NCBI GenBank assembly: GCA_031291825.1 | Contig: JARLIG010000004.1 | Location: 22,240 to 86,239, forward strand | Source: Minisyncoccota bacterium | GTDB lineage: Bacteria; Patescibacteriota; Minisyncoccia; Phycocordibacterales; UBA9973 | Length of the DNA stretch: 64,000 nt | Reading direction: 5' to 3' | Made by a program: the position numbers and the translations under genes | Shown: piece after piece, positions 3-30,344 of the stretch | Position numbering within the stretch: position 1 is the stretch's first letter | Layout of the letters: each line of letters starts with the position of its first letter | The notes under the pieces: generated by a model | What the model was told of the DNA's origin: nothing | Database searches by the model: none | Seen by the model: only the letters and a program-made list of their open reading frames with translations

Positions 3-2315
3 ACTGGAACTTATCGGGTAACGATTTGTAATGCTGGTTATTCTGCCAGTGATTCTGTTTGTACCGTTAACTCTTTTAACATTACTTCTTCTGCTGGTGC
101 TGGAGGTTCTATCTCTCCATTAGGCACAACCTCTGAGAATTATGGAAGTAGTCAAACTTATACCATAACTCCCAATACTGGTGCGGGTTACAGTATAGCC
201 AATGTTTCGGTTGATGGTTCTTCTGTTGGCGCAGTTAGTACTTATACATTTTCAAATATCACAACCAATCATACTATCAGTGCAACTTTTAACTTAATGG
301 CTGGTACTCTCACAGCTAGTCCTACTTCTTGTAGTATCGCAGTTGGAGCAAGTAGCTGTAATGTAACTCTTACTTGGACCACCACTCACCCAGTTAGTAC
401 TTCCTGGATAACTTCTTCCGTAGATAATTCTGGAAATCCTTATACAAATTTTGATGTGTCTAGCCCAAATATTAATAATGGAAGTCAGTCTGTAGTTATT
501 CCATATAGCTCTAGTGGCTCTAGAACTTTTTATCTATATAATTATAACATTTCGCTGGTTCCAACTTCTCAATTTCCAAATGGTTCTGGTATAACTGTGG
601 CCTCAAGTTGTGTTCTCAATACTGTTTGGAATGGGAGTATTTGCGCGCAATATGCTCTTACCGTCAATAAAGCTGGTACTGGTTCTGGAACGGTAGGTGG
701 TGCTGGAATATATGCTTACAACACAGTTGCACCAGCCACAGAGTCACCTAATGGCGGCTCAACTTTTACTGGTTGGAGTGGAGATTGCAGTGGAACAAAT
801 CCAACTTATGGAGTTACGATGAGTGCTGCAAAATCTTGTACCGCGACGTTTACATTAATCCCAACTGCATCCTTCACAAACACTCCATCATGTACTATCC
901 CTGCAGGAAGTAGCGGCTGTAGTGCCAACATAACATGGACGTCGTCAAACACCAGTACAGTAAATCTAACGGACGGTGGTGACGGATTTTATGCACAAAC
1001 AGGTACAGGAGCACAGTCTGGGACTGTACACATACCTTACAATTCTGGAACTTATAATATACGAAATGTAGTTAGTGGTGTAGAAGTTCCTCCGCCTGCT
1101 GGTATCTTGGCTACAGTTACTGGTACCTCTGCTTGTGCTTCTGGTAGTACTTGGATTGTAAGCAGTGGTACTTGCGTGGCAGCTCCATATGGAAGTTTTG
1201 ACAACGCTAGTCCAAACCCAGTTTATAATAATGGAGTATTATCTATGAATGGTTGGGCAGCTGATATTCAGGACGGAGCACCTGTTTCTAGTGTGCAAAT
1301 ATACATTGATGGTACTTCAATTGGTAATGCCACCCTGGGAGGGTCTAGACCAGACGTACTTGCTGCCTACCCAAGTTATCCTAGCTGGGTTAATTCAGGT
1401 TGGAATATGAATTATACGATTCCAGCTAGTTTATCGACCGGAAGTCACACAGCCAAAGCCGTTGCCTCTGACAAGGAAGGTCTATCATCTACTTTTACTT
1501 ATAATTTTACGGTTGGCACATGCACTCTTCCTTCTGTCACCACAACTGCTTCCGTTTCAAATGTAACTCAAACGAGTGGAACAAGTGGTGGAAGCATAAC
1601 CTCAAACGGAGGATGCCCTGTTACTGTTAGTGGAATTACTTGGAGTACCTCCTCAGGAAACGAAACTTACACAGTAGGAAATACAGCAACTCAAACAACT
1701 GACGGCTGGCAATCTGGTGGTCCTTGGCTCGATATTGCTGGAGGTGTCAACACTTATGTAGCTAGTACTCCTTTAACTCCAGGGACTACATATTACATTA
1801 AAGCTTATGCAGAAAACAGTGTAGGTCCTTCTTTTGGTAATGAAATACATTTTACGACCAGCGCTCCGACTCCAGTGAATGGAGTTTGTGGTACAGCCAA
1901 TGGTAAAGCATATCCATATCCTTCAAGTAGCTATGGTTCAGACACACAATGTTCTTCTGGGACTCCAAGTCCTAATAATGCTTTTCCATCTGCAGGCAAT
2001 ACGGCCTATTGGCAATGTATGGAGGCGAATGGAGGAACAAATAGTTCCACATGTTCAGCATCTCAAGGTGCTCCGTCGGTTACTTTTTCAGCCAATCCAA
2101 CAACCATAGTAAGTGGCGGATCTTCAACTCTGACTTGGTCTTCTTCTGCTACTTCTTGTACGGGAACTAATTTCAGCACAGGCACAGGGAGTCCTAATTC
2201 TGGGAGTGTTTCAGTTACTCCATCTTCAACCACTCAATATACAGTAACTTGTGGTGGCTTCCCAGCAACTCAAACTGTCACAGTCGACAAAAAGCCAGTA
2301 TATAGAGAGCACTAA
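3..2315 (+). CDS. Surface/secreted S/T/G-rich protein with an InlB B-repeat-like domain, 5'-truncated by the window edge.
   Basis: The frame of ORF 297..2315 stays open back to nt 3 with no stop. One region (GSGTVGGAG...YAYNTVAPATESPNGGSTFTGWSGDCSG) matches the bacterial InlB B-repeat pattern. The C-terminal ~80 aa is shared with the next gene. Confidence 0.6.
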   Translation, partial: TGTYRVTICNAGYSASDSVCTVNSFNITSSAGAGGSISPLGTTSENYGSSQTYTITPNTGAGYSIANVSVDGSSVGAVSTYTFSNITTNHTISATFNLMAGTLTASPTSCSIAVGASSCNVTLTWTTTHPVSTSWITSSVDNSGNPYTNFDVSSPNINNGSQSVVIPYSSSGSRTFYLYNYNISLVPTSQFPNGSGITVASSCVLNTVWNGSICAQYALTVNKAGTGSGTVGGAGIYAYNTVAPATESPNGGSTFTGWSGDCSGTNPTYGVTMSAAKSCTATFTLIPTASFTNTPSCTIPAGSSGCSANITWTSSNTSTVNLTDGGDGFYAQTGTGAQSGTVHIPYNSGTYNIRNVVSGVEVPPPAGILATVTGTSACASGSTWIVSSGTCVAAPYGSFDNASPNPVYNNGVLSMNGWAADIQDGAPVSSVQIYIDGTSIGNATLGGSRPDVLAAYPSYPSWVNSGWNMNYTIPASLSTGSHTAKAVASDKEGLSSTFTYNFTVGTCTLPSVTTTASVSNVTQTSGTSGGSITSNGGCPVTVSGITWSTSSGNETYTVGNTATQTTDGWQSGGPWLDIAGGVNTYVASTPLTPGTTYYIKAYAENSVGPSFGNEIHFTTSAPTPVNGVCGTANGKAYPYPSSSYGSDTQCSSGTPSPNNAFPSAGNTAYWQCMEANGGTNSSTCSASQGAPSVTFSANPTTIVSGGSSTLTWSSSATSCTGTNFSTGTGSPNSGSVSVTPSSTTQYTVTCGGFPATQTVTVDKKPVYREH

Positions 2316-2386
2316 AAATATTTTCTTTGTGTTATAATATATTTGTTTGATTATTATCAACGATACATAATCGCAAATATATTGTT

Positions 2387-4042
2387 ATGAAAAAAAATAT
2401 TTTGATATCTCTAAAATTTTTATCTCTGCTTTTTGTTTTCGCAGGTTTACTTTTACTCAAATCAAGCGTTGCTTTTGCTCAAGATGCAGACCCTTCGGTT
2501 AACATTCAATCTGTCTCACCAAGTTCCGCAGATACTCAAATCACAGTCAGTGGTGGAGCCACTGGAGGAGAGAGCACCACAGATGTCAGATGTGGTCATG
2601 CTCCCTATATACTCATGCCAATTACCACCGTAACTCAGCTATCTACTACTGTAAATTATTCTATAGATGGAGGTACTGTATTTTCTGCTCCTGCTGCCAC
2701 AGTCTCAGTCACAGGACAATCAAGTAATGTTTGTTCAAGCCCAACGCCAGCAGTCGGTATACAGTGGGGCTACTCATTTAGTTTCACTGACTCCACTCAT
2801 GTTGCAGCACTTTCTAATGGAACTCACACCGTCGAGGCTTGTTTGGGAACTTGGGGAAGTTTGTGTGATACAGCGACTTTTATAGTGAGTCATCCTCTTC
2901 CTGACCTGACGGCTAATCCAGTGACCCCAACTTCTGCCATTGCTAGTATTGCTACAACTTTTTCTTCAACCATTTCAAACATCGGTAATGCTTCAACGGG
3001 GGGGTCATTTTCCAACTTTTTTCAAATTGCCACAGCTACGGGTGGCGGGGGAACAATTACTGACTTAGCTTCTACTTCTATGTCTACGCTGGCATCTGGG
3101 GCTACAAATACAGCCACTAAGTCTTATACTTTTCCATCATCTGGAACGTATTCAGTGCGTGCCTGTGCAGATAAAACTTCTTCGGCTGGTGGTGGAGTGA
3201 TTAATGAGTCAAACGAAAATAATAATTGTGGAGCTTGGGTAGATGTGACGGTCAATCCAGCTACTTGCTCAAATGGAGCAACCAATCCTTTGGCTTGTAC
3301 AACTTGTGCAGCTGGTTCAGCAATGATTGGTGGAATGTGTACCCCTGTTTCGGTTTCTGTTTCTGCAACAACTCCCTACAGTACTACTCCAAGCACTAAT
3401 GTAAGTTTTGCCTACAGCGCAAATACCAACTCCAATGCTGGTACGGAGTGTCGCTTGTTAAATTATAATCAAGACACAAACAACCCTCTGACTTCTTATC
3501 AAGCAAATAGTCCAATTACATATTCTTCTGCTAGCGTTGCTGGAACATATGCTTATTATGTAGAATGTCGTGATAAAACGACGACTTCAGCTACTGCTAC
3601 TTCTAATCAGATTATCGTAAATGTTTATGTGAACGGCGGATGGAGTGGGTGGAGTGGTTGGGGAACCTGCAGTATGAGTTGCGGTGGTGGAACACAGACA
3701 GCCACTCGCACCTGTACGCATCCAGCTCCACAAAATGGCGGACAAGGTTGTTCTGGTTCAGATACTGAATCTCAGTCTTGTAATGTCCAAGCTTGTACTA
3801 CTTCTTTAACTGCGAACCCAGCAAACTTGGTTTCAGGGTCCGGTATTTCTTCAATGTTAAGTTGGTCTTCTACTGCGCCTTATTGTACAAAGAGTACTAA
3901 CTTTACTCTTCCTAACGACAATCCATCCGGCAGTCTTGCTGTCACTCCAACTTCTACTACAACATATTCAGTTACTTGTGGTGGAGTTTCGGCGACTGCA
4001 ACTGTTTCAGTGAAGAAAAAACCGATATACATAGAGCATTAA
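2387..4042 (+). CDS. Secreted protein with a signal peptide, a thrombospondin type-1-like repeat and the same C-terminal module as the preceding gene.
   Basis: The N-terminus MKKNILISLKFLSLLFVFAGLLLLKSSVAFA reads as a signal peptide. The stretch WSGWSGWGTCSMSCGGGTQTATRTCTHP...CSGS...QSCNVQAC follows the TSP1 pattern. The C-terminus ...TYSVTCGG..ATATVSVKKKPIYIEH parallels ORF1's ...QYTVTCGGFPATQTVTVDKKPVYREH. Confidence 0.6.
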   Translation: MKKNILISLKFLSLLFVFAGLLLLKSSVAFAQDADPSVNIQSVSPSSADTQITVSGGATGGESTTDVRCGHAPYILMPITTVTQLSTTVNYSIDGGTVFSAPAATVSVTGQSSNVCSSPTPAVGIQWGYSFSFTDSTHVAALSNGTHTVEACLGTWGSLCDTATFIVSHPLPDLTANPVTPTSAIASIATTFSSTISNIGNASTGGSFSNFFQIATATGGGGTITDLASTSMSTLASGATNTATKSYTFPSSGTYSVRACADKTSSAGGGVINESNENNNCGAWVDVTVNPATCSNGATNPLACTTCAAGSAMIGGMCTPVSVSVSATTPYSTTPSTNVSFAYSANTNSNAGTECRLLNYNQDTNNPLTSYQANSPITYSSASVAGTYAYYVECRDKTTTSATATSNQIIVNVYVNGGWSGWSGWGTCSMSCGGGTQTATRTCTHPAPQNGGQGCSGSDTESQSCNVQACTTSLTANPANLVSGSGISSMLSWSSTAPYCTKSTNFTLPNDNPSGSLAVTPTSTTTYSVTCGGVSATATVSVKKKPIYIEH

Positions 4043-7409: not shown

Positions 7410-8804
7410 TTAATTACTAGTCCAACTTAATTGTTTATAACCAGAAGAAGAAAGGGGAAAACCAGGTGGCGGAGCATATAGCAGATTATTGTCGTATGTG
7501 TCACTGGTGGTAGCATAGCCAGAAACATTATTGTTGTTTCCATCAACCCAATTCCAAGTCCATTGACCGAAAGTCATAATTGAACCGAAAATCGAAATAG
7601 AATTTTTTATTGCACTCCCATCTGGATAATAATAAAATTCCGCACTTCCGTTTTGCGCTATCAACGCGCCATCGATTTCTAAATTATTCGGAGCATTATG
7701 GGCCACGACGATACTTTGCTGTGCTAGAAGTCCCAATACATCTGTACCATCTTTTGCTTGATAGGTGAGATTATTTTGAATATAAATATTGGGAGCAGTA
7801 CTGGCGACATAAGGCAAGCTAGCTGCTACAACCATTACTCGACCATTCACCACGCCTTCCACCCAAGTATTGTCTTCAATGTAGATTATTCCATTGCTTG
7901 GTATTGCTTTTGTGTATTGTAAACTTCGAGTGTTATAGTCAATATTTTCATTATGAGCATTGTTGTATACATCCCAACCTGTTGGGTCGTTTAAGAGCGA
8001 AGTCACTTTATAAACTGAAACAGTGCCATTACTGTTAAAAACTAAAGAATATCCATTTGTATTTGATGGCGGTAAATAAAGTCCAGAACTCTGCGCGCTG
8101 CTTTTTAGGGTGGCGAGATTTGAAGTAAGTGCAGAAAAATCAACCGCTGGAACGGGGAATTGCCAAAAACTTTTCACCGCTGAACTGGCACTGCCCCAGA
8201 CTCCATTTTCGGTCGTTGGGCATGGACTGCCTTGTCCGGCAGTACAAGTATAAGTAGATTTTGCAGAACCAATCGGTGCATTTCCGACTCCATCAAAACG
8301 TACTCCGCCATTTGATTGCATTTGTCCATTAACTGTTTCCGAAGGACCAATCCAAATCACATCGTTGCTTAAAAATGAATAAACCGCTAGAGATGGGATA
8401 CCATACTTAACGGTAATGGTTTTTTTTATGTTCGGATTGCTGCTGGTGTTTCCTGTAGACGCGATTGTTACTATTGTACTCCCATTGGATGGAGGGGTTA
8501 TGACCAAGCTGTACTGTCCTAAAATATTTTGCGTATCTGTATCCACATAATTGTGTACATAGGGACCAGCCGTGTTTGTGCCATCTTGGTAGTCGGTTGG
8601 GAAATGGGCCAAATGCCATTGATAATAATTTATTCCTGCTTCCGCAATTTGTAAAGCTTGTTCTTTGACAACAGTCTCCTTGATTAATTTATCTGTGGTT
8701 ATAGCCCAGCTTATAATCGGTGGCATGACTACGGCAAAAACAGCAATCACTATAAGTATCAATACTAACGTATCTCCCTTATTTAATTTATTTTTTTTAA
8801 ACAT
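7410..8804 (-). CDS. Pilus-associated protein with an N-terminal TM helix, possibly a minor pilin / PilX-like.
   Basis: The N-terminus KGDTLVLILIVIAVFAVV is hydrophobic and pilin-like but lacks the canonical G-F-T-L-E motif. The gene lies in an operon with two bona fide prepilin genes. Confidence 0.45.
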   Translation of the reverse strand: MFKKNKLNKGDTLVLILIVIAVFAVVMPPIISWAITTDKLIKETVVKEQALQIAEAGINYYQWHLAHFPTDYQDGTNTAGPYVHNYVDTDTQNILGQYSLVITPPSNGSTIVTIASTGNTSSNPNIKKTITVKYGIPSLAVYSFLSNDVIWIGPSETVNGQMQSNGGVRFDGVGNAPIGSAKSTYTCTAGQGSPCPTTENGVWGSASSAVKSFWQFPVPAVDFSALTSNLATLKSSAQSSGLYLPPSNTNGYSLVFNSNGTVSVYKVTSLLNDPTGWDVYNNAHNENIDYNTRSLQYTKAIPSNGIIYIEDNTWVEGVVNGRVMVVAASLPYVASTAPNIYIQNNLTYQAKDGTDVLGLLAQQSIVVAHNAPNNLEIDGALIAQNGSAEFYYYPDGSAIKNSISIFGSIMTFGQWTWNWVDGNNNNVSGYATTSDTYDNNLLYAPPPGFPLSSSGYKQLSWTSN

Positions 8805-21058: not shown

Positions 21059-22774
21059 ATGGAATCAGAAATCAAAAAATTAATAAAAGATGCGCTGAAA
21101 AATTTAGATATTGAAACCAATTCAATTGTTTTGGAACACCCGGAAGATTTGAAGAATGGAGACTATTCAACCAACGTGGCCCTGGCTATTGCCAAAGGAG
21201 TCGAAAGAAATCCCAGAGAGCTCGCAGAGAAAATAGTTGAGGAAATAAAAAGACTAAATGTAGATAAAAATATAGAAAAAGTTGAAGTCGCTGGCGCAGG
21301 ATTTATAAATTTTCACTTATCTCGAAAATTTTTTAGTCAGAGTGTGGAAGAAATTTTAAACCAAGCAGCCGATTTTGGAAAAAATAAAATCCTAGAAGGA
21401 CAAAAGATTATGGTTGAATACACTCAGCCAAATCCATTTAAGCCTTTTCATATAGGGCATCTAATGAGTAATGCTATTGGTGAATCCATCTCTCGTATTG
21501 TAGAGTTTTCTGGAGCATATACAGCACGAGCAAACTATCAAGGAGATGTTGGGCTTCATGTGGCCAAAGCCATCTACGGTCTTTTGCAAAAAGAAGAATT
21601 GCAGGGTAAAGCAGGCACTCACAATTTACAAGCATCCAATATCGGACAAGCATATATCTATGGAGCGAATACTTACGAGAACGATGAAAAAGCCAAAAAA
21701 GAAATTGATGAGTTAAATAAGAAAATTTATGATAGAACTGACAATAAAATAAATGAAATTTATGCTTGGGGTTTTGATGTGACGATGGAAGCTTTTGAAG
21801 ATTTATATGAAATGCTTGGCACAAAGTTTGATTATTATTTCTTGGAAAGTGCGATGGCAGACAGTGGACGAGAGATTGTTAATGCAAATATGGATAAGGT
21901 GTTTGAAAAATCTGATGGGGCCGTTGTTTTCAAGGCAGAGAAATACGACCTGAAGCTTCATACTAGAGTTTTTATAACTTCCACTGGTTTGCCGACCTAT
22001 GAGACAAAAGAACTTGGTTTGACTGAGGAGAAATTTAAAACCGAGCCAGAAATGAATTTATCTATAGTCGTGACGGCAAGTGAACAGTTGGATTATATGC
22101 GTGTTGTTGCAAAGGCAATCTCAATAATACATCCAGAGTTTGAAAATAAAATGAAACACATTACGCATGGGATGATGCGTCTGGCGACTGGAAAAATGGG
22201 TTCTCGTAAAGGCAATGCAATCACTGGTGAATCATTAATCAATGATTCACGTGAAGCTGTTTTTGAAAAAATGAAAGACCGTGAATTTGGAGAGGTAGAA
22301 AGAGAAAAAATTGTTTCTGATGTGGCTGTGGCAGCGATAAAATATTCCGTGCTGAAACAAGGGACTGGTGGAGACATCATTTATGATTTTGAAAAATCAA
22401 TTTCTTTTGAGGGAGATTCTGGTCCATACTTGCAATATTCCTATACTCGCGCAAATTCAGTTTTAGAAAAAGCACAAAAGGAAAATATTTTTCCAGATTT
22501 TGAAAATGTGCCTGCTGAAATTTTTGAAGTGGAAAAAATGTTATATAAATTTCCGGAAGTTGTTCTGCGTTCTGTCTCCGAATATGAACCGCATTATATT
22601 GCAAATTATCTTATCGAAGTCGCTCGCGCTTACAACAGCTTTTATGGGAATAATGTCATAGTGAACAAAGAGGATAAAACCTCGCCATACAAAGTGGCTC
22701 TGACCTATGCTTTTTCTTTTGTGATGAAAACTGGTTTGCATCTTCTCGGCATCGAAGCACCAAAGAAAATGTAG
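21059..22774 (+). CDS. argS: Arginyl-tRNA synthetase.
   Basis: The HIGH region PFHIGHLMSNAIGESISRI and NYQGDVGLHV are present, together with a C-terminal DALR-type region YEPHYIANYLIEVARAYNSFY. Confidence 0.8.
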   Translation: MESEIKKLIKDALKNLDIETNSIVLEHPEDLKNGDYSTNVALAIAKGVERNPRELAEKIVEEIKRLNVDKNIEKVEVAGAGFINFHLSRKFFSQSVEEILNQAADFGKNKILEGQKIMVEYTQPNPFKPFHIGHLMSNAIGESISRIVEFSGAYTARANYQGDVGLHVAKAIYGLLQKEELQGKAGTHNLQASNIGQAYIYGANTYENDEKAKKEIDELNKKIYDRTDNKINEIYAWGFDVTMEAFEDLYEMLGTKFDYYFLESAMADSGREIVNANMDKVFEKSDGAVVFKAEKYDLKLHTRVFITSTGLPTYETKELGLTEEKFKTEPEMNLSIVVTASEQLDYMRVVAKAISIIHPEFENKMKHITHGMMRLATGKMGSRKGNAITGESLINDSREAVFEKMKDREFGEVEREKIVSDVAVAAIKYSVLKQGTGGDIIYDFEKSISFEGDSGPYLQYSYTRANSVLEKAQKENIFPDFENVPAEIFEVEKMLYKFPEVVLRSVSEYEPHYIANYLIEVARAYNSFYGNNVIVNKEDKTSPYKVALTYAFSFVMKTGLHLLGIEAPKKM

Positions 22775-22785
22775 TAGAATGGGGT

Positions 22786-24204
22786 GTGACTCAAGAACAA
22801 GCTTTAGATATTTTAAAAACTGGCGCGAATGTTTTTCTCACAGGCGAGCCGGGGGCTGGGAAGACGCATACCATAAATACTTTTGTGGATTATTTGCATA
22901 GATGTGGTGTCGAGCCGGCGGTGACAGCTTCGACGGGTATTGCTGCCACGCATATCGGCGGAATGACTATTCATTCTTGGAGTGGAATCGGAATTAAAAC
23001 AAAATTGGATAAATACGATTTGGATAAAATTGCGAGCAGTGAATATATTGCCAAGCGCATTAATCGCACGAAAGTATTAATCATTGACGAGGTGTCGATG
23101 TTGTCTGCAAATACACTAGATATGGTGGATATGGTTTGTCGGGAGGTGAAACAAAGCGGTGAACCTTTTGGCGGCATCCAGATTGTTTTAGTTGGTGATT
23201 TTTTTCAATTACCACCAATCATTAAAACAGATTTTACGCAAAATAAACAAAGTTCATTTATTTCTGACAATGGAGGTTCTAAAATTTTTGCCTGTGATAG
23301 CGGAGCATGGCAGAGGGCACGGCTCGTCGTGTGCTATCTGACCGAACAACATAGACAAGACGATAAAGATTTTCTGTCGGTGCTTTCAGCTATCCGTGGC
23401 AATAATGTTTTGGAAGAGCATAGAAATTATATAAATTCTAGGCAAATTGATAATTATGATATGCCAGAAAATACCACAAAGCTTTTTTCGCACAATTTTA
23501 ATGTAGACAAAGTGAATGATGCGGAACTTTCGAAAATAGAAGATGTATCGAAGAATTTTGAAATGATTTCAACTGGGAATGACAAATTGGTAGAAATTTT
23601 AAAGAAGGGATGTTTGTCTCCAGAAAATTTAGAACTGAAAGTCGGAGCGGTGGTCATGTGTACAAAAAATAACCAGAAAGAACATTTTGTTAATGGGACG
23701 CTGGGAATTGTCATAGAATTTGATGAATTTAGCGGGTATCCAATTATCAAAACCAGAAGTGGATACAAGGTGACTATCTCGCCGATGGATTGGGCGGTTG
23801 AAGAAAATGGAAAAATTCGAGCGCAGATAACTCAAGTGCCACTCCGTTTGGCTTGGGCGATAACCGTGCACAAAAGCCAAGGCATGAGTCTAGACGCGGC
23901 AGTCATGGATTTATCGCAAGTGTTTGAATACGGGCAGGGGTATGTGGCGCTGTCTCGCGTGCGCAGACTTTCTGGGCTATACATTCTCGGCATAAATGAA
24001 CAAGCTTTAAAAGTTAGCCCAAAAATCTTAGAAAAAGATATTGATTTTAAAAAACAATCCAAAGAAGCAGTAAAAGTTTTTGGAAAATTGTCGGCAGATG
24101 AACTCAAAAAAATGCATGAGAATTTTGTCATTGCTTGTGGAGGAAAAAAGCAAAAAAGAGGAATAATGAAAAAAGAAAAATTTTATGCTAAAATCAGCAA
24201 ATAA
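22786..24204 (+). CDS. PIF1/RecD-family ATP-dependent DNA helicase; a GTG start is predicted.
   Basis: Walker A LTGEPGAGKTHT, Walker B LIIDEVSML and the segment ITVHKSQGMSLD are present. Confidence 0.65.
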   Translation: MTQEQALDILKTGANVFLTGEPGAGKTHTINTFVDYLHRCGVEPAVTASTGIAATHIGGMTIHSWSGIGIKTKLDKYDLDKIASSEYIAKRINRTKVLIIDEVSMLSANTLDMVDMVCREVKQSGEPFGGIQIVLVGDFFQLPPIIKTDFTQNKQSSFISDNGGSKIFACDSGAWQRARLVVCYLTEQHRQDDKDFLSVLSAIRGNNVLEEHRNYINSRQIDNYDMPENTTKLFSHNFNVDKVNDAELSKIEDVSKNFEMISTGNDKLVEILKKGCLSPENLELKVGAVVMCTKNNQKEHFVNGTLGIVIEFDEFSGYPIIKTRSGYKVTISPMDWAVEENGKIRAQITQVPLRLAWAITVHKSQGMSLDAAVMDLSQVFEYGQGYVALSRVRRLSGLYILGINEQALKVSPKILEKDIDFKKQSKEAVKVFGKLSADELKKMHENFVIACGGKKQKRGIMKKEKFYAKISK

Positions 24205-27200
24205 TGGCTGAAAACATAGAACACAATAAATCAGAAGCAGCTTTGCGCGAAGAACGCATTTTGGAGTTTTGGAAAGAAAATAAAATTTTTGAGAAATCTT
24301 TAAAGCAAACAGAGGGAGAAAAGGAATTTATTTTTTACGAAGGTCCACCGACAGCAAATGGAAAGCCAGGGATACATCACTTAGAAGCTCGAGCTTTTAA
24401 GGATGCGATTCCGAGATATAAAACAATGCAAGGTTTTCATGTGCGTCGCAAGGGTGGATGGGATACGCACGGTTTGCCAGTGGAACTGCAAGTGGAAAAA
24501 AAGCTTGGCTTAAATTCAAAAAAGGGAATCGAAGAATATGGCATCGCGAAATTCAATCAAGAATGTAAAGAATCCGTTTGGGAATATTTGGAAGTTTGGA
24601 ATAAATTTACCAAACGTATTGGCTATTGGGTAGACCAAGAGAATGCTTATGTCACTTATCACAATGATTACATTGAATCAGTCTGGAATATCGTCAAAAA
24701 AATAAACGAACAAAAATTACTTTATAAAGATTATAAAGTTGTGCCATGGTGTCCGCGTTGTGGCACCGCGCTTTCTTCACACGAGCTCGCGCAAGGGTAT
24801 GAAGAAGTGAAAGATTTGTCGGTGACAGCAAAATTTAAAGTTGTTCCGTCGGCACAAAAGAATCCTTCGGCATTACTCCACCCTATGGGCGGAACCTTCC
24901 GCCTTCAGGATTCTTCTGTGCCGACTTACATACTGGCTTGGACGACCACTCCGTGGACTTTACCAGGCAATGTTGCTCTTGCTGTCGGGGAAAAACTTGA
25001 TTATGTAAAAATAAAAGTTGGAAATGAATTTTTTATTCTAGCCAAAGCACGACTTTCTGTAGTGGAAGGTGAGTATGAAATTATAGAAGAAATAAAAGGT
25101 AAGGATTTGCTTGGTTTAGAATACGAACCACTTTATCCATTTCTTTCAAATACGGTTTTTGAAACTGAAAAATGGAAAATGGAAAAAGCCTACAAAGTTT
25201 ACGGAGCAGGTTTCGTGACGACCGAAGACGGTACGGGTGTGGTACACACCGCCGTGATGTATGGGCAGGACGATTTTGTCTTAGGAACAAAGGTTGGTTT
25301 GCCGAAACATCATTTGGTTGGTTTGGACGGAAGATTTTTAGCTGGCACAGGAATTTTTGAAGGTCGCTTTGTTCGCGACGAAGACGTGGCGGTGGATGTC
25401 ATTAAAGATTTAGCGCATCGCGGACTTTTATTTAAGAAAGAAAAATATGAGCACTCTTATCCGCATTGTTGGCGATGTAAAACAGCGCTGATTTATTACG
25501 CGCGAGATTCATGGTATATAAAAGTTTCCGACCCATTGATAAAAGACAAAATGATTTCCGAAAATAAAACAATCAATTGGGAGCCTTCACATATTCGCGA
25601 TGGACGTTTTGGCGAATGGTTGCGCGAGATAAAAGATTGGGCGGTTTCTCGCGAAAGATATTGGGGAACGCCGCTACCGGTTTGGACTTGTGAAGACTGC
25701 AAGACAGTCGAAGTCATCGGCAGCGTGGAGGAAATAAAAGATAAAACAAAAAAGTCTGGCAATAAGTATTTTGTGATACGTCATGGCGAAGCGGAAAACA
25801 ATGCGAAAAATATTTATTCTTCCGACCCAAATATAAATCATCTAACTGAAAAAGGAAAAGAGCAGGTTTTAAAAACAGCGAAAGAGCTTATAAATAAAAA
25901 AGTTAGTATAGTTTATTGTTCGCCCTTTTTGCGAACACGAGAAACAGTGGAAATTGTCTCGGAAAAAATTGGTTTTCCAAAAGATAAAATTATTTATGAT
26001 GACAGAATCCGTGAATTAGGACTTGGTGATTTTTCTGGAAAGTCTTCTGAGAAATATTTAGATTTTGCTGAAGGAAAAACTTGGACTTTTGATGAGAAAA
26101 TTCCAGGAGGAGAAAGTTATCAAGACACGAAGAATCGTTTCGGAGAATTTTTGTATGAAATTGATCAAAAACATCACAATGAGACAATTTTAATTGTTTC
26201 TCATGGATTGGCAGTGGAAGTAATTCCAAGCATCATTGAAGGAGCCGACAAAAAACGTTCATTAGAAATTTTTACTGCACAAGAAAGCAATAAGACCGCT
26301 TCTTTGCATAAAGAACATAATTTTATTCCAATTCCGCACAACGAAAATTACGAACTAGATTTACATCGACCATATATTGATGAAGTGAAGCTTGTTTGTT
26401 CTTGTGGTGGGAATTTGGTGCGCACCAAAGAAGTTATGGATGTCTGGCTAGATTCTGGCGCTATGCCTTTTGCTCAAGACCACTATCCTTTTGAAAACAA
26501 AAAATGGGTGGATGGAGTGGGATATCCGGCGGATTTTATTTCCGAAGCCATTGACCAAACGCGCGGATGGTTTTACACCTTGCATGCCGTCGGTGTGTTG
26601 ATGGGGCGGGGTAAGGCGTATAAAAATGTAATTTGTCTTGGGCATTTGCTTGATGCAAAGGGTAAAAAGATGTCCAAATCCTTGGGCAATATTGTGGATC
26701 CTTGGGAAGCGATGGATAAATATGGTGCGGACACACTTCGTCTTTGGATGTATTCCGTCAATCAGCCTGGCGAATCTAAAAATTTTGATGAAAAAACAGT
26801 TGCACTGCTCCACCAGCAAGTTTTTGGTTTGCTTTACAATGTTTTAGCATTCTATGAGCTTTATCGAGACAAAGAAGCAGAGAGGTCGTACCTTGAGAAT
26901 TCAAAAAGGTACAACCTCGAGAATTTAAATGTTCTAGACCAATGGATTTTGGCCAGACTCGATGAATTGATAAAAATTTCTACAGATAACTTAGACAATT
27001 ATAAACTTCTTGAACCAACGCGCGCGATTCGTGACTTTGTTGGCGACCTTTCCACTTGGTATCTACGACGCTCTCGAGACAGAATAAAAGATGCAAATAA
27101 TGAAGACAGTAAAGAAGCCAAACAAACTTTGTATTTCGTTTTAAAGACTCTTGTAAAAGTCATGGCACCATTTGCGCCCCTAGCGGCTGAAGATATTTGG

Positions 27201-27755
27201 TTGAAATTAAAAAATGAGCAAGATGTGGAAAGTGTGCATCTGACCGAATGGCCAAAAACTGAGAAAGTAAATACCCAGATTCTTGATGATATGAAAAAAG
27301 TTCGAGAAATCGTGACGCTTGGTCTTGAGGCTCGCCAAAAAGCTGGAATAAAAGTGCGTCAGCCACTAAATCAATTACAAATCAAGAATTACGAACTAGG
27401 AATTGAATACACAGAATTGATTAAAGAAGAATTGAATGTAAAAGAAATAAAAGAAAATAAAAACATCGAAAACGAAGTTTTGTTGGATGTGAAAATTGAT
27501 GAAGAATTAAAACAAGAGGGAGATTACCGTGAATTGATGCGCGCTCTGCAAGATATGCGCAAGAAAATGGGACTTACCCCAAGTGATGTTGTTTCAGTGG
27601 TTTTTGAAACCGACGAAGCAGGTAAAAATTTAATTGAAAAATTTGAAGCAGATATGAAAAAAACCATACTAGCGTCAAAAATAAAATTCAAAGAAAGCGG
27701 TGGTGAGGAAATAAAAATAGATGAGTTGGTTTTTAAAGTAAAAATAGAAAAATAA
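24204..27755 (+). CDS. ileS: Isoleucyl-tRNA synthetase (type-2/eukaryote-like) carrying an inserted histidine-phosphatase (PGAM-like) domain.
   Basis: Catalytic-core motifs PPTANGKPGIHHLEAR...GWDTHGLPVE, Zn knuckles WCPRCG and CEDCK, and DQTRGWFYTL are present. The editing domain contains TTPWTLPGN. KMSKS is present; the segment DLHRPYID is normally found in type-2 IleRS. The insert spans roughly nt 25764-26300 and contains VIRHGEAENN, SPFLRTRET, PGGES and IVSHG. Confidence 0.8.
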   Translation: MAENIEHNKSEAALREERILEFWKENKIFEKSLKQTEGEKEFIFYEGPPTANGKPGIHHLEARAFKDAIPRYKTMQGFHVRRKGGWDTHGLPVELQVEKKLGLNSKKGIEEYGIAKFNQECKESVWEYLEVWNKFTKRIGYWVDQENAYVTYHNDYIESVWNIVKKINEQKLLYKDYKVVPWCPRCGTALSSHELAQGYEEVKDLSVTAKFKVVPSAQKNPSALLHPMGGTFRLQDSSVPTYILAWTTTPWTLPGNVALAVGEKLDYVKIKVGNEFFILAKARLSVVEGEYEIIEEIKGKDLLGLEYEPLYPFLSNTVFETEKWKMEKAYKVYGAGFVTTEDGTGVVHTAVMYGQDDFVLGTKVGLPKHHLVGLDGRFLAGTGIFEGRFVRDEDVAVDVIKDLAHRGLLFKKEKYEHSYPHCWRCKTALIYYARDSWYIKVSDPLIKDKMISENKTINWEPSHIRDGRFGEWLREIKDWAVSRERYWGTPLPVWTCEDCKTVEVIGSVEEIKDKTKKSGNKYFVIRHGEAENNAKNIYSSDPNINHLTEKGKEQVLKTAKELINKKVSIVYCSPFLRTRETVEIVSEKIGFPKDKIIYDDRIRELGLGDFSGKSSEKYLDFAEGKTWTFDEKIPGGESYQDTKNRFGEFLYEIDQKHHNETILIVSHGLAVEVIPSIIEGADKKRSLEIFTAQESNKTASLHKEHNFIPIPHNENYELDLHRPYIDEVKLVCSCGGNLVRTKEVMDVWLDSGAMPFAQDHYPFENKKWVDGVGYPADFISEAIDQTRGWFYTLHAVGVLMGRGKAYKNVICLGHLLDAKGKKMSKSLGNIVDPWEAMDKYGADTLRLWMYSVNQPGESKNFDEKTVALLHQQVFGLLYNVLAFYELYRDKEAERSYLENSKRYNLENLNVLDQWILARLDELIKISTDNLDNYKLLEPTRAIRDFVGDLSTWYLRRSRDRIKDANNEDSKEAKQTLYFVLKTLVKVMAPFAPLAAEDIWLKLKNEQDVESVHLTEWPKTEKVNTQILDDMKKVREIVTLGLEARQKAGIKVRQPLNQLQIKNYELGIEYTELIKEELNVKEIKENKNIENEVLLDVKIDEELKQEGDYRELMRALQDMRKKMGLTPSDVVSVVFETDEAGKNLIEKFEADMKKTILASKIKFKESGGEEIKIDELVFKVKIEK

Positions 27756-28391: not shown

Positions 28392-30344
28392 TTGCACTTA
28401 GATGATACAATTCTACATATGCCGTCTGACGACAAGAACAATCTCAATCGACTTGAAGAGCTAAAGAGTAAACTCTTTAGTAAAAATTATCAGACCAAGA
28501 TAGAACATAGAGACGTTTTTTCTCATGCGCAAAGAAATGACCTAGAGGATTCTTGGGAAAAAGTTGAAAAAGATAGTAGTGGGGTGGCGAGCAGATTTTT
28601 TATGAATACATCTCTTTTTAAAAAATTCTTTTTTTTCTCTGTCGGTGTTTTTATTTTAGCCTTGGTTTATGTCGGTTATATTTCTTTTATTGGAGGCAAT
28701 ACGGTTTCGAATAACAATATTGATATTTCTGTGGTTGGTAATAATTTTACGGCTGGCGGAGAAGCACTGCCATTGATTGTTCAGGTTACCAATAGAAATA
28801 ATTCAGCACTCGAATTAGCGGATTTGGTAATGCAATATCCAAACGGGAGCTCTTCTGATGCGTCTTCTACCTTACGCGAATCTCTGGGCACGATTGGCGC
28901 GGGGGCAGTTGTAAATGAAAATTTAAAACCTGTGCTATATGGCGAGCAGGGTAGCACCGCTACCATAACCTTTTCTTTGGAATATCATATTCCTGGCTCC
29001 AATGCGATTATCGTAAAAAGCCAACCTTACGTTGTTACTATAAATTCCACGCCGATAAATATTTCTGTAGATGCTCCACCCACCCTAAGTCCAAATCAGG
29101 CTATTGCTTTAAATGTGAAAACTACACTCAATTCCACCACTACCATTCCAAATGTTCTAGTAAAGGTTGATTATCCGATTGGATTTCAATTTTCTTCTGC
29201 TACGCCCGCTCCTTCTTTTGGCAATAACGTTTGGAGCTTGGGTGACTTAGCTCCTGGCGCAGAGCACGATATTTCTATTTCTGGAACCATGGTTGGTGTT
29301 TTTAGTGGAGACCAAAAAACTTTCAATATTTCAAGTGGTTCACAGTCTAGCACCGACAAGTCTGCAATTGACGTAGTTTTTAATTCTGTACAGCAGACGG
29401 TTGCAATACAAAAACCTTTCATCGAAGCAGACCTTGCGGTGAATGGTGTTTCAGGAAATTCTTTTACGACAACTTCTAAGACACCTATTAATGCGACCAT
29501 CAATTATGTAAATAATTTAGACACGACGGTTGATAATGTGCAAATTGTTGCCAAGATATCAGGCAATGCTTTTGATCCAAGCACTATAAATGCGTCACAG
29601 GGTTTTTATGATTCTTCAGCCAATACAATAACTTGGGATAAAAACTATCAAAAACAACTCGCTCAAGTAAATCCTGGTGATTCTGGTTCTTTGAATTTTT
29701 CTCTTAACCCTCTTTCTTTATTCTCTGCTAGGGGAGGTCTGTTACCCACGCCGACCATTAACGTGGAAATAGATATTTCAGGGCAACAGGCAAATTCTGG
29801 TTTTGCGGTGAACAATATAACTAACTCTTCTTCAGCTACAGTGAAAGTTATTTCTGATGTCGGATTTTCCGATAAAGCACTATATTATTCTGGACCTTTT
29901 ACCAATACTGGTCCGATACCTCCAGACGTTGGCAAAATTACGACTTATACTATAGTTTGGACACTTTCCAATACTGCTAATAGTATTTCCAATGCGCAAG
30001 TTATTTCGTCTCTGCCAGAATGGATAAATTTTGTTGGACCCATATCACCAACGAGTGAAAACTTAACTTATAATTCCACTACTAGACAATTAATTTGGAA
30101 TGCCGATAGAATTCCTTCTGGCGCAGGTCTCACTGGGACGGCACGCTCAGTTTCTTTTCAGGTTTCTTTTAATCCTTCACTCTCACAAGTCAGCACTACT
30201 CCGATTATTCTCAATGGTGCTGTTTTGACGGGGCACGATGATTTTGCTAATGTGGACTTAACGGTCAGCAAAGCCGCGCTCAGTACCAATTTATCCAACG
30301 ACACTGCTTTCCCGGGAGGCGGGGGGAACGTGGTAAGTAATTAA
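28392..30344 (+). CDS. Hypothetical membrane-anchored surface protein (single TM, large S/T/N-rich ectodomain).
   Basis: A TM helix FFFFSVGVFILALVYVGYISFIGG comes after about 70 aa. No recognisable catalytic motifs were seen. An alternative start is at 28419. Confidence 0.4.
   Translation: MHLDDTILHMPSDDKNNLNRLEELKSKLFSKNYQTKIEHRDVFSHAQRNDLEDSWEKVEKDSSGVASRFFMNTSLFKKFFFFSVGVFILALVYVGYISFIGGNTVSNNNIDISVVGNNFTAGGEALPLIVQVTNRNNSALELADLVMQYPNGSSSDASSTLRESLGTIGAGAVVNENLKPVLYGEQGSTATITFSLEYHIPGSNAIIVKSQPYVVTINSTPINISVDAPPTLSPNQAIALNVKTTLNSTTTIPNVLVKVDYPIGFQFSSATPAPSFGNNVWSLGDLAPGAEHDISISGTMVGVFSGDQKTFNISSGSQSSTDKSAIDVVFNSVQQTVAIQKPFIEADLAVNGVSGNSFTTTSKTPINATINYVNNLDTTVDNVQIVAKISGNAFDPSTINASQGFYDSSANTITWDKNYQKQLAQVNPGDSGSLNFSLNPLSLFSARGGLLPTPTINVEIDISGQQANSGFAVNNITNSSSATVKVISDVGFSDKALYYSGPFTNTGPIPPDVGKITTYTIVWTLSNTANSISNAQVISSLPEWINFVGPISPTSENLTYNSTTRQLIWNADRIPSGAGLTGTARSVSFQVSFNPSLSQVSTTPIILNGAVLTGHDDFANVDLTVSKAALSTNLSNDTAFPGGGGNVVSN

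Follow-up and report, generated by a model that had tools for sequence, protein, structure and literature searches.

We found a complete histidine-phosphatase domain nested within the isoleucyl-tRNA synthetase (IleRS) encoded in a 64,000-nucleotide stretch of contig JARLIG010000004.1 from a Minisyncoccota bacterium (the window, meaning this whole stretch). The host gene, ileS, encodes a type-2 enzyme (IleRS2), and the inserted domain lies in its CP3 subdomain. The nested domain is real and is inherited in hundreds of genomes of the Parcubacteria group. With roughly even confidence, we read it as an autonomous small-molecule phosphomonoesterase of the PhoE/PspA/CobC type that is tethered to a working IleRS2 and tied to the function of aminoacyl-tRNA synthetases (aaRSs). 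The features that carry this finding have the following window coordinates:

24204..27755, + strand: ileS, type-2 IleRS and host of the insertion; one uninterrupted open reading frame (ORF) of 1183 aa
24369..24380, + strand: class I signature in the noncanonical form GIHH (G/AXHH), aa 56-59, located by regular expression and coordinates
25689..25700, + strand: CP3 zinc knuckle 1, CEDC, aa 496-499, the N-side border of the insert; C496 and C499 invariant in alignment A5
25740..26345, + strand: nested histidine-phosphatase module, aa 513-714, about 202 aa, the size of a whole stand-alone phosphatase of about 190 aa
25770..26258, + strand: His_Phos_1 (PF00300) match, aa 523-685; E=7.9e-33, 114 bits against a cut-off of 21.7, profile positions 2-165 of 194
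25779..25787, + strand: RHG motif (R526, nucleophile H527, G528); R and H in 157/157 nested domains and invariant in alignments A1 and A5
25932..25934, + strand: R577, phosphate-pocket arginine (SPFLRTRET); kept in 151/151
26013..26015, + strand: E604, presumed general acid/base (RELGLG); Glu in 143/149, Asp in 4
26202..26204, + strand: H667, second catalytic histidine (VSHG); kept in 145/145
26328..26375, + strand: C-side junction motif PIPHNENYELDLHRPY, aa 709-724, leading back into CP3; in 33 of 34 full-length proteins
26397..26405, + strand: CP3 zinc knuckle 2, CSC, aa 732-734; C732 and C734 invariant in alignment A5
26667..26681, + strand: KMSKS loop, intact, aa 822

Outside the insert, the protein is collinear with the IleRS2 of Priestia megaterium (8C8W, its closest solved relative, 805 bits) and of T. 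thermophilus (1ILE, 773 bits), and its best matches in the PDB are IleRS2 entries. In the alignment with 8C8W, query residue 512 corresponds to chain residue 475 and query residue 715 to chain residue 483; about 7 residues, which form a linker in CP3, are replaced, with a net gain of about 195 aa, and the IleRS sequence picks up in frame at the exact homologous residue after the insert. The ileS product scores 885 bits with TIGR00392, above the equivalog cut-off of 621.4, and matches tRNA-synt_1, Anticodon_1 and the type-2 C-terminus DUF5915 in Pfam, with the tRNA-synt_1 match divided into two stretches by the His_Phos_1 match. The original prediction had described the flanking IleRS motifs as intact, and this was borne out: in addition to GIHH and KMSKS, the editing-site motifs TTTPWT (aa 247) and GTGVVH (aa 343) and both cysteine clusters are in place, and the CP-core zinc cluster (CPRC 183/CWRC 422), found at the editing-domain base, is intact. 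GIHH stands where HXGH is canonical, and the G/AXHH form in IleRS2 has been tied experimentally to mupirocin hyper-resistance (PMC10485003). The intact motifs, together with the conservation of the protein as the ileS of many genomes, suggest that tRNA(Ile) is aminoacylated with the insert present.

The insert sits in CP3 between its zinc knuckles CEDC and CSC. CP3 is the link from CP2 to the latter half of the Rossmann fold and has a zinc motif in the T. thermophilus enzyme; the topology of CP3 differs between all solved IleRSs (PMC7191050), which makes it a peripheral and tolerant site. In the 34 full-length proteins compared, the insert enters at one and the same point, and the junctions, ..KKSGN directly followed by KYF..RHG on the N side and F.P.PHN..YELDLHRPYID on the C side, are common to nearly all of them; P0249 has only the DLHRPYID part of the C-side junction, without F.P.PHN. 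An insertion had been predicted here at about 170 aa. The inserted segment stands, but it is larger than that, and the end assigned to it at position 26300 falls within the insert. Similarly, a zinc knuckle does adjoin the insert as first described, and it belongs to CP3, where CEDC pairs with CSC. The insert (window 25740-26345) has a higher AT content than the remainder of ileS, with 33.0% versus 39.6% GC and, at third codon positions, 22.8% versus about 35% GC.

By profile, catalytic core and alpha/beta fold, the insert belongs to branch 1 of the histidine phosphatases (PF00300), and the profile match is far beyond chance. Every motif on which the original prediction was built could be located: WTCEDC (aa 494-499), VIRHGEAENN (524-533), LTEKGKEQ (547-554), SPFLRTRET (573-581), ELGLGDFSG (604-612), PGGES (634-638), IVSHG (664-668) and DLHRPYID (719-726). 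We take E604 to occupy the position of Glu89 in the cofactor-dependent phosphoglycerate mutase (dPGM), going by the motif.

All 120 of the nearest 90%-identity clusters (65 to 100% identity) are full length and carry PF00300, with no non-phosphatase segment in its place, and several of them lie on contigs of 0.4-0.67 Mb. In 13 GTDB species-representative genomes, titled Nomurabacteria, Paceibacterota or Saccharibacteria (the last probably mislabelled), the insert is found within one uninterrupted ORF of 1157-1376 aa, and NCBI holds a protein identical to that of the window (P0254), named [quoted passage not shown] and encoded on a contig of 87.5 kb. When the insert was searched against 1.84 billion representatives, 54 matches had E<=1e-30, and the best 150 matches were mostly long proteins in which the match falls at about residues 480-720. 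The source names are those of the Parcubacteria group of Patescibacteria (Nomurabacteria, Nealsonbacteria, Magasanikbacteria and Minisyncoccia). Apparently insert-less relatives from the first homolog search were fragments of <500 aa, and a full-length search settled their status as truncated or frameshifted pieces of insert-bearing ileS. Thus, the predicted domain insertion is a true one, and the reading in which a chimeric contig or a frameshift has joined a separate phosphatase ORF to ileS, favored by the many fragmentary database entries and by frameshifted pieces on some long-read contigs, is refuted by the 8C8W alignment with its in-frame resumption, the continuous ORF here and in the 13 independent genomes, the identical NCBI protein and the 120 full-length clusters.

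A hidden Markov model of the insert gave 216 domain instances in the fetched proteins, and residue counts were taken over about 150 nested copies where aligned. R526, H527, R577 and H667 showed no substitution in any of them, each complete tandem copy included, and the catalytic residues were kept in nested copies across proteins down to about 30% identity. Among 30 close relatives, 16 of the 189 insert positions were invariant, all catalytic residues among them, and the mean pairwise identity was 44% for the insert, 70% for CP1 and 80-85% for the Rossmann fold. This is purifying selection concentrated on the catalytic center of the insert, and with its full catalytic set kept, the insert is apparently active.

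The closest stand-alone homologs, P0045, P0048 and P0044, are whole proteins of about 190 aa that start with NNKYFILRHGEA, end where the insert ends and are without the C-side junction motif. Because the extent of the insert is that of these full-length homologs, it corresponds to an entire gene product. P0045 lies between argS and ileS (argS-phosphatase-ileS in locus L014) with gaps of 2-3 nt, and the adjoining ileS is insert-less, encodes 977 aa and is 40% identical to the window ileS on either side of the site. The genes for P0048 and P0044 are directly downstream of argS, and the argS-phosphatase order occurs in loci L018, L025 and L026. P0063 (L020) is one of two tandem phosphatase genes upstream of gatB. 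These tandem genes (L020, positions 813-1966) have overlapping stops and starts and lie directly 5' of gatB, which encodes subunit B of the tRNA-dependent amidotransferase. The syntenic partner is also present in the window:

21059..22774, + strand: argS (ArgRS), an ORF; found upstream of ileS in 7 of 13 relatives

The window and its relatives share the order argS-(pif1-like)-ileS with the nested phosphatase-recO, and no separate phosphatase gene was found in the window or the relatives where a copy is nested. Paralogous phosphatase or HD genes were looked for within the 64-kb window, and the one match, in recA, was fortuitous. When a domain occurs as a fusion in some genomes and as an operon neighbor in others, this is the classic sign of functional linkage. 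The simplest history suggested by this synteny is capture of the neighboring stand-alone gene into CP3.

The pif1-like helicase ORF (22786-24204) ends on the start base of ileS; this 1-nt overlap (window 24201-24206) fits with argS-pif1-ileS-recO being a tightly packed transcription unit. On the 3' side of recO, an ORF of 650 aa (window 28392-30344) has no Pfam match, and in L024 a 624-aa protein with a weak CLIPPER match is found at the matching position. L024 also contains IS605 OrfB/TnpB-like and Cas1-like genes between argS and ileS (937-3022), and in L027 a reverse-transcriptase (RVT_1) gene lies just 5' of ileS (2355-3260); both contigs have frameshifted ileS pieces.

The closest solved proteins to the insert by sequence were Hydrogenobacter PspA (iPSP1; 4IJ5, E=1.5e-15), PhoE (1H2E and 1EBB) and CobC. 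An AlphaFold2 model of aa 496-740 was of high confidence, with a predicted local distance difference test score (pLDDT) of 94.4 and a predicted template modeling score (pTM) of 0.90, and Foldseek matched it with a probability of 1.00 to many solved members, the best being PspA (template modeling score 0.73, root mean square deviation 2.2 Å). The listed Foldseek neighbors were all small-metabolite phosphatases, namely PspA, mycobacterial hydrolases, CobC, GpgP, Shb17, PhoE, riboflavin HFP and TIGAR. The nested domains are mildly acidic, with a median isoelectric point (pI) of 6.1 and a net charge of -3, and the stand-alone domains are the same; thus, a test for a basic, RNA-binding surface by pI and charge was negative for both. 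The original prediction had offered a phosphorylated tRNA end, a nucleotide or a signaling molecule as possible targets, and the fold and charge evidence leans toward a small-molecule substrate over tRNA. Among NCBIfam models, the best match was the archaeal-type dPGM model NF038349 (E=2.5e-27; 96 versus a cut-off of 225), and the insert scored 79-84 versus 162.9 with CobC, 75-80 versus 350 with PspA and 38-43 versus 74.5 with SixA. Its match to the CobC profile runs from position 3 to position 166 out of 176.

The module varies in number and in company among the relatives. Tandem His_Phos_1 arrays occur at the same CP3 site, with four copies in P0132 and two in P0145, P0180, P0204, P0205 and P0231; the copies within one protein are only 23-37% identical, and every complete copy has the catalytic residues. 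A C-terminal HD phosphohydrolase domain of about 160 aa, which is absent from the window IleRS, is found in the ileS of L002 (about 7850-8511), L006, L007, L010 and L011, and 7 of the 120 nearest clusters have it as well. Proteins with this domain include P0269, P0284, P0330, P0335, P0350 and P0361. This extension takes the place of the extreme C-terminus and matches PF01966 (E~1e-7), with weak HD_3 and HDIG matches. P0233 (1066 aa, on a JGI contig of 11.3 kb) has a RAYT/IS200-type Y1 transposase domain at aa ~326-472, within the editing-domain region, followed by His_Phos_1 (680-854) and a GNAT domain (935-1063), and the second half of IleRS is missing from the ORF. In the window IleRS, GNAT gave no Pfam match. 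A segment of about 22 aa, KNPSALLHPMGGTFRLQDSSVP (aa 219-240, window 24858-24923), lies just N-terminal of TTTPWT with low model confidence and is missing wholly or mostly (12-22 residues) in the 13 genome relatives.

The module and its host also have discordant histories, as seen when identities to the window protein were calculated separately for the N core (aa 20-495), the phosphatase (aa 520-708) and the C-terminal segments C1 (aa 716-900) and C2 (aa 901-1170):

P0255, close core with a window-type insert: N core 87%, phosphatase 69%, C1 93%, C2 76%
P0275, close core with an unrelated-looking insert: N core 85%, phosphatase 36%, C1 88%, C2 73%
P0336, close core with an unrelated-looking insert: N core 82%, phosphatase 34%, C1 82%, C2 62%
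L003, divergent catalytic body with a window-type insert: N core 44%, phosphatase 67%, C1 47%, C2 68%

L005, L007 and L009 show the same segment pattern as L003, and these four have another N-terminal half, with a GPPFATGQIH-type start and not GIHH. The discordance between the module and the catalytic body (aa 20-495 plus 716-900) was seen in P0265, P0275, P0320, P0336 and others. The low-identity inserts are 33-52% identical to one another and 39-45% identical to the argS-linked stand-alone proteins. Differential loss from a two-copy ancestor was not supported as the source of the two insert classes, given the low identity of these inserts to one another and the tandem copies, which are 23-37% identical and of unmatched types. 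The mosaic pattern of ileS suggests recombination, cassette exchange or strongly uneven rates; for the module itself, the discordance may reflect either cassette-like exchange, which in the L003-like genes would also involve the catalytic body, or extremely fast surface evolution.

If the insert is a tethered phosphomonoesterase, as we prefer to read it, its chemistry would follow that of the superfamily. His527 would attack a phosphomonoester to form a phospho-histidine intermediate, Arg526, Arg577 and His667 would hold the phosphate, and Glu604 would protonate the leaving group and then activate water for phosphate release. Judging from the synteny, the module would have been taken from the stand-alone phosphatase gene of an argS-phosphatase-ileS operon, and such a capture would tie its job to aminoacyl-tRNA synthesis. 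Our guess is that the second active site acts on a soluble phosphorylated small molecule that resembles a nucleotide or a phospho-amino acid, and that tethering to IleRS may serve coexpression and proximity, with no part in the aminoacylation chemistry.

Several observations weigh against this reading. The insert reaches no curated equivalog cut-off in NCBIfam, and a specific substrate therefore is not transferable from the known enzymes. Four of the eight stand-alone contexts, those of more distant homologs, have unrelated neighbors and no aaRS. The evolutionary event may have been either a capture or an excision, and a neighbor-joining tree meant to separate single capture from repeated exchange, made from short, fragmentary sequences without an outgroup, mixes nested and stand-alone domains. 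The full-length AlphaFold2 model is poor (pLDDT 66, pTM 0.41, Rossmann fold below 50) and leaves room for a role on tRNA. Finally, the HD or GNAT companions in relatives and the discordance of the module with its host hint at a more specific role than that of a passenger.

The alternative that we would take up first, although we consider it unlikely, is tRNA-end repair, in which the phosphatase would strip a 3'-terminal phosphate or pyrophosphate, or the product of 2',3'-cyclic-phosphate opening, and thereby enable IleRS to charge the tRNA. Repair of this sort would be a defense against CCA-end blocking by toxins or nucleases, and a block of this kind is documented, as 3'-CCA pyrophosphorylation by toxSAS enzymes prevents aminoacylation (10.1101/2021.04.30.441581, PMC11559606, PMC9712102). 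The stand-alone homologs adjoin three tRNA-handling genes (argS, ileS and gatB), and a fast-evolving surface surrounds a strictly kept catalytic center; however, the fold neighbors act on small metabolites, and the domain lacks a basic charge signature (pI ~6.1). The confident packing of the domain on the CP3 stubs in the AlphaFold2 sub-model (pTM 0.90) implies a fixed orientation, but in tandem arrays of as many as four copies, not every copy could face a single acceptor end, and the existence of such arrays speaks against a single active site that is aimed with precision. An HD phosphohydrolase domain is added to the same IleRS in some relatives, but it sits at the anticodon-binding end and matches only the generic HD, HDIG and HD_3 profiles, not those of RSH hydrolases. 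To our knowledge, no RNA end-healing enzyme has a histidine-phosphatase fold.

We place below this, as a long shot, an on-enzyme repair or counter-defense module that works together with the HD and GNAT domains of the relatives and either strips phosphate blocks, such as toxSAS-style pyrophosphorylation, from the tRNA 3' end or inactivates phosphorylated inhibitors that mimic aminoacyl-adenylates right where these inhibitors act.

It is improbable that the insert is a cis-acting protein phosphatase that clears IleRS or a neighboring translation factor of an inhibitory phosphate, such as a HipA-like kinase toxin could add. The histidine phosphatase superfamily includes the protein phosphatases SixA, Sts and PGAM5, and kinase toxins that phosphorylate class I aaRSs are established, with HipA acting on GltX and HipT on TrpS; the module is also linked to two class I aaRS genes. 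However, the match to SixA is weak and stays below the cut-off, the domain has the size of PhoE and CobC, and none of these protein phosphatases is among the 50 Foldseek neighbors listed.

Very little speaks for the organism's glycolytic dPGM being parked inside IleRS. Although the best NCBIfam match of the insert is a dPGM model, neither that score nor the one with TIGR01258 (pgm_1; 34 versus 81.7) is high enough, and phosphatases are the structures nearest to the insert. The mutase-type motifs are missing as well: E. coli GpmA has HGN after the second histidine and ERHYG after the catalytic glutamate, whereas the insert has SHGLA and ELGLG, and the dPGM identity was rejected. We give even less credence to a structural or dimerization pseudo-enzyme without a catalytic role, or a neutral passenger in decay. 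The domain does evolve far faster than its host, in a subdomain that is topologically variable and tolerant, but its invariant positions are exactly the catalytic and phosphate-pocket residues in about 150 copies, the module is kept in all 120 nearest clusters, and a catalytic center that stays invariant in such a fast-evolving domain argues against a pseudo-enzyme.

Compared with known systems, the insert resembles PhoE/PspA/CobC-type phosphatases in fold and catalytic residues and is sized as a whole stand-alone enzyme, but it is nested in another enzyme and stays below every equivalog cut-off. The host resembles other IleRS2 in its DUF5915 C-terminus, in CP3 zinc knuckles like those of T. 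thermophilus IleRS and in the G/AXHH form of the hyper-resistant enzymes, and it differs in the approximately 195 extra CP3 residues that make up a second catalytic domain. A curated precedent for an IleRS with an unrelated enzyme domain is NCBIfam NF040702 (IleRS, N-acetyltransferase domain-containing). The window protein, which is without the GNAT domain, scores 326 bits with this model versus a cut-off of 1999, while P0233 combines His_Phos_1 and GNAT domains. The phosphatase domain is also an add-on elsewhere, in the RNase H/acid phosphatase of Mycobacterium (PRK07238) and in MutT1 (Nudix plus histidine phosphatase), to which the insert has partial matches below the cut-offs (72-74 and 19 bits, respectively); those proteins are end-to-end fusions without an aaRS, in contrast to the nested insertion found here. 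The CP1 editing domain of class Ia aaRSs is likewise a hydrolytic domain nested in the Rossmann fold via a connective-polypeptide site. However, CP1 is universal in IleRS, ValRS and LeuRS and hydrolyzes misacylated tRNA, whereas the insert is lineage specific, is located in CP3 and has a phosphatase fold.

Full-text literature searches for a nested phosphatase in IleRS returned nothing relevant, which agrees with the original statement that this is not a described architecture, and recent studies of IleRS domain evolution (including PMC10485003) make no mention of such an insertion. Proteins with this architecture are already public under generic names, and their Pfam domain lists show the combination. 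The name assigned by automatic annotation is often just "class I tRNA ligase family protein", which makes the insert an issue for annotation in practice. Accessory domains are known from other aaRSs; a nested second catalytic center in a class I aaRS is unexpected, and it is widely conserved.

The aaRSs are among the best-studied enzymes, and domains added to them have repeatedly exposed new biology, such as editing, signaling and complex assembly. Here, a second, apparently active center of another enzyme class is found in an essential synthetase, in one to four copies, across a large group of ultra-small uncultured bacteria. It is a natural case of a whole enzyme tolerated within CP3, which is useful for aaRS engineering. 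If the counter-defense reading is true, the cassette-like, host-discordant and fast-evolving history of the module would be the trace of an arms race, and this would be the first known aaRS with its own antidote activity. With argS, ileS and gatB as its genetic partners, the phosphatase points to an unrecognized phosphate-removing step associated with the charging of tRNA in these reduced genomes.

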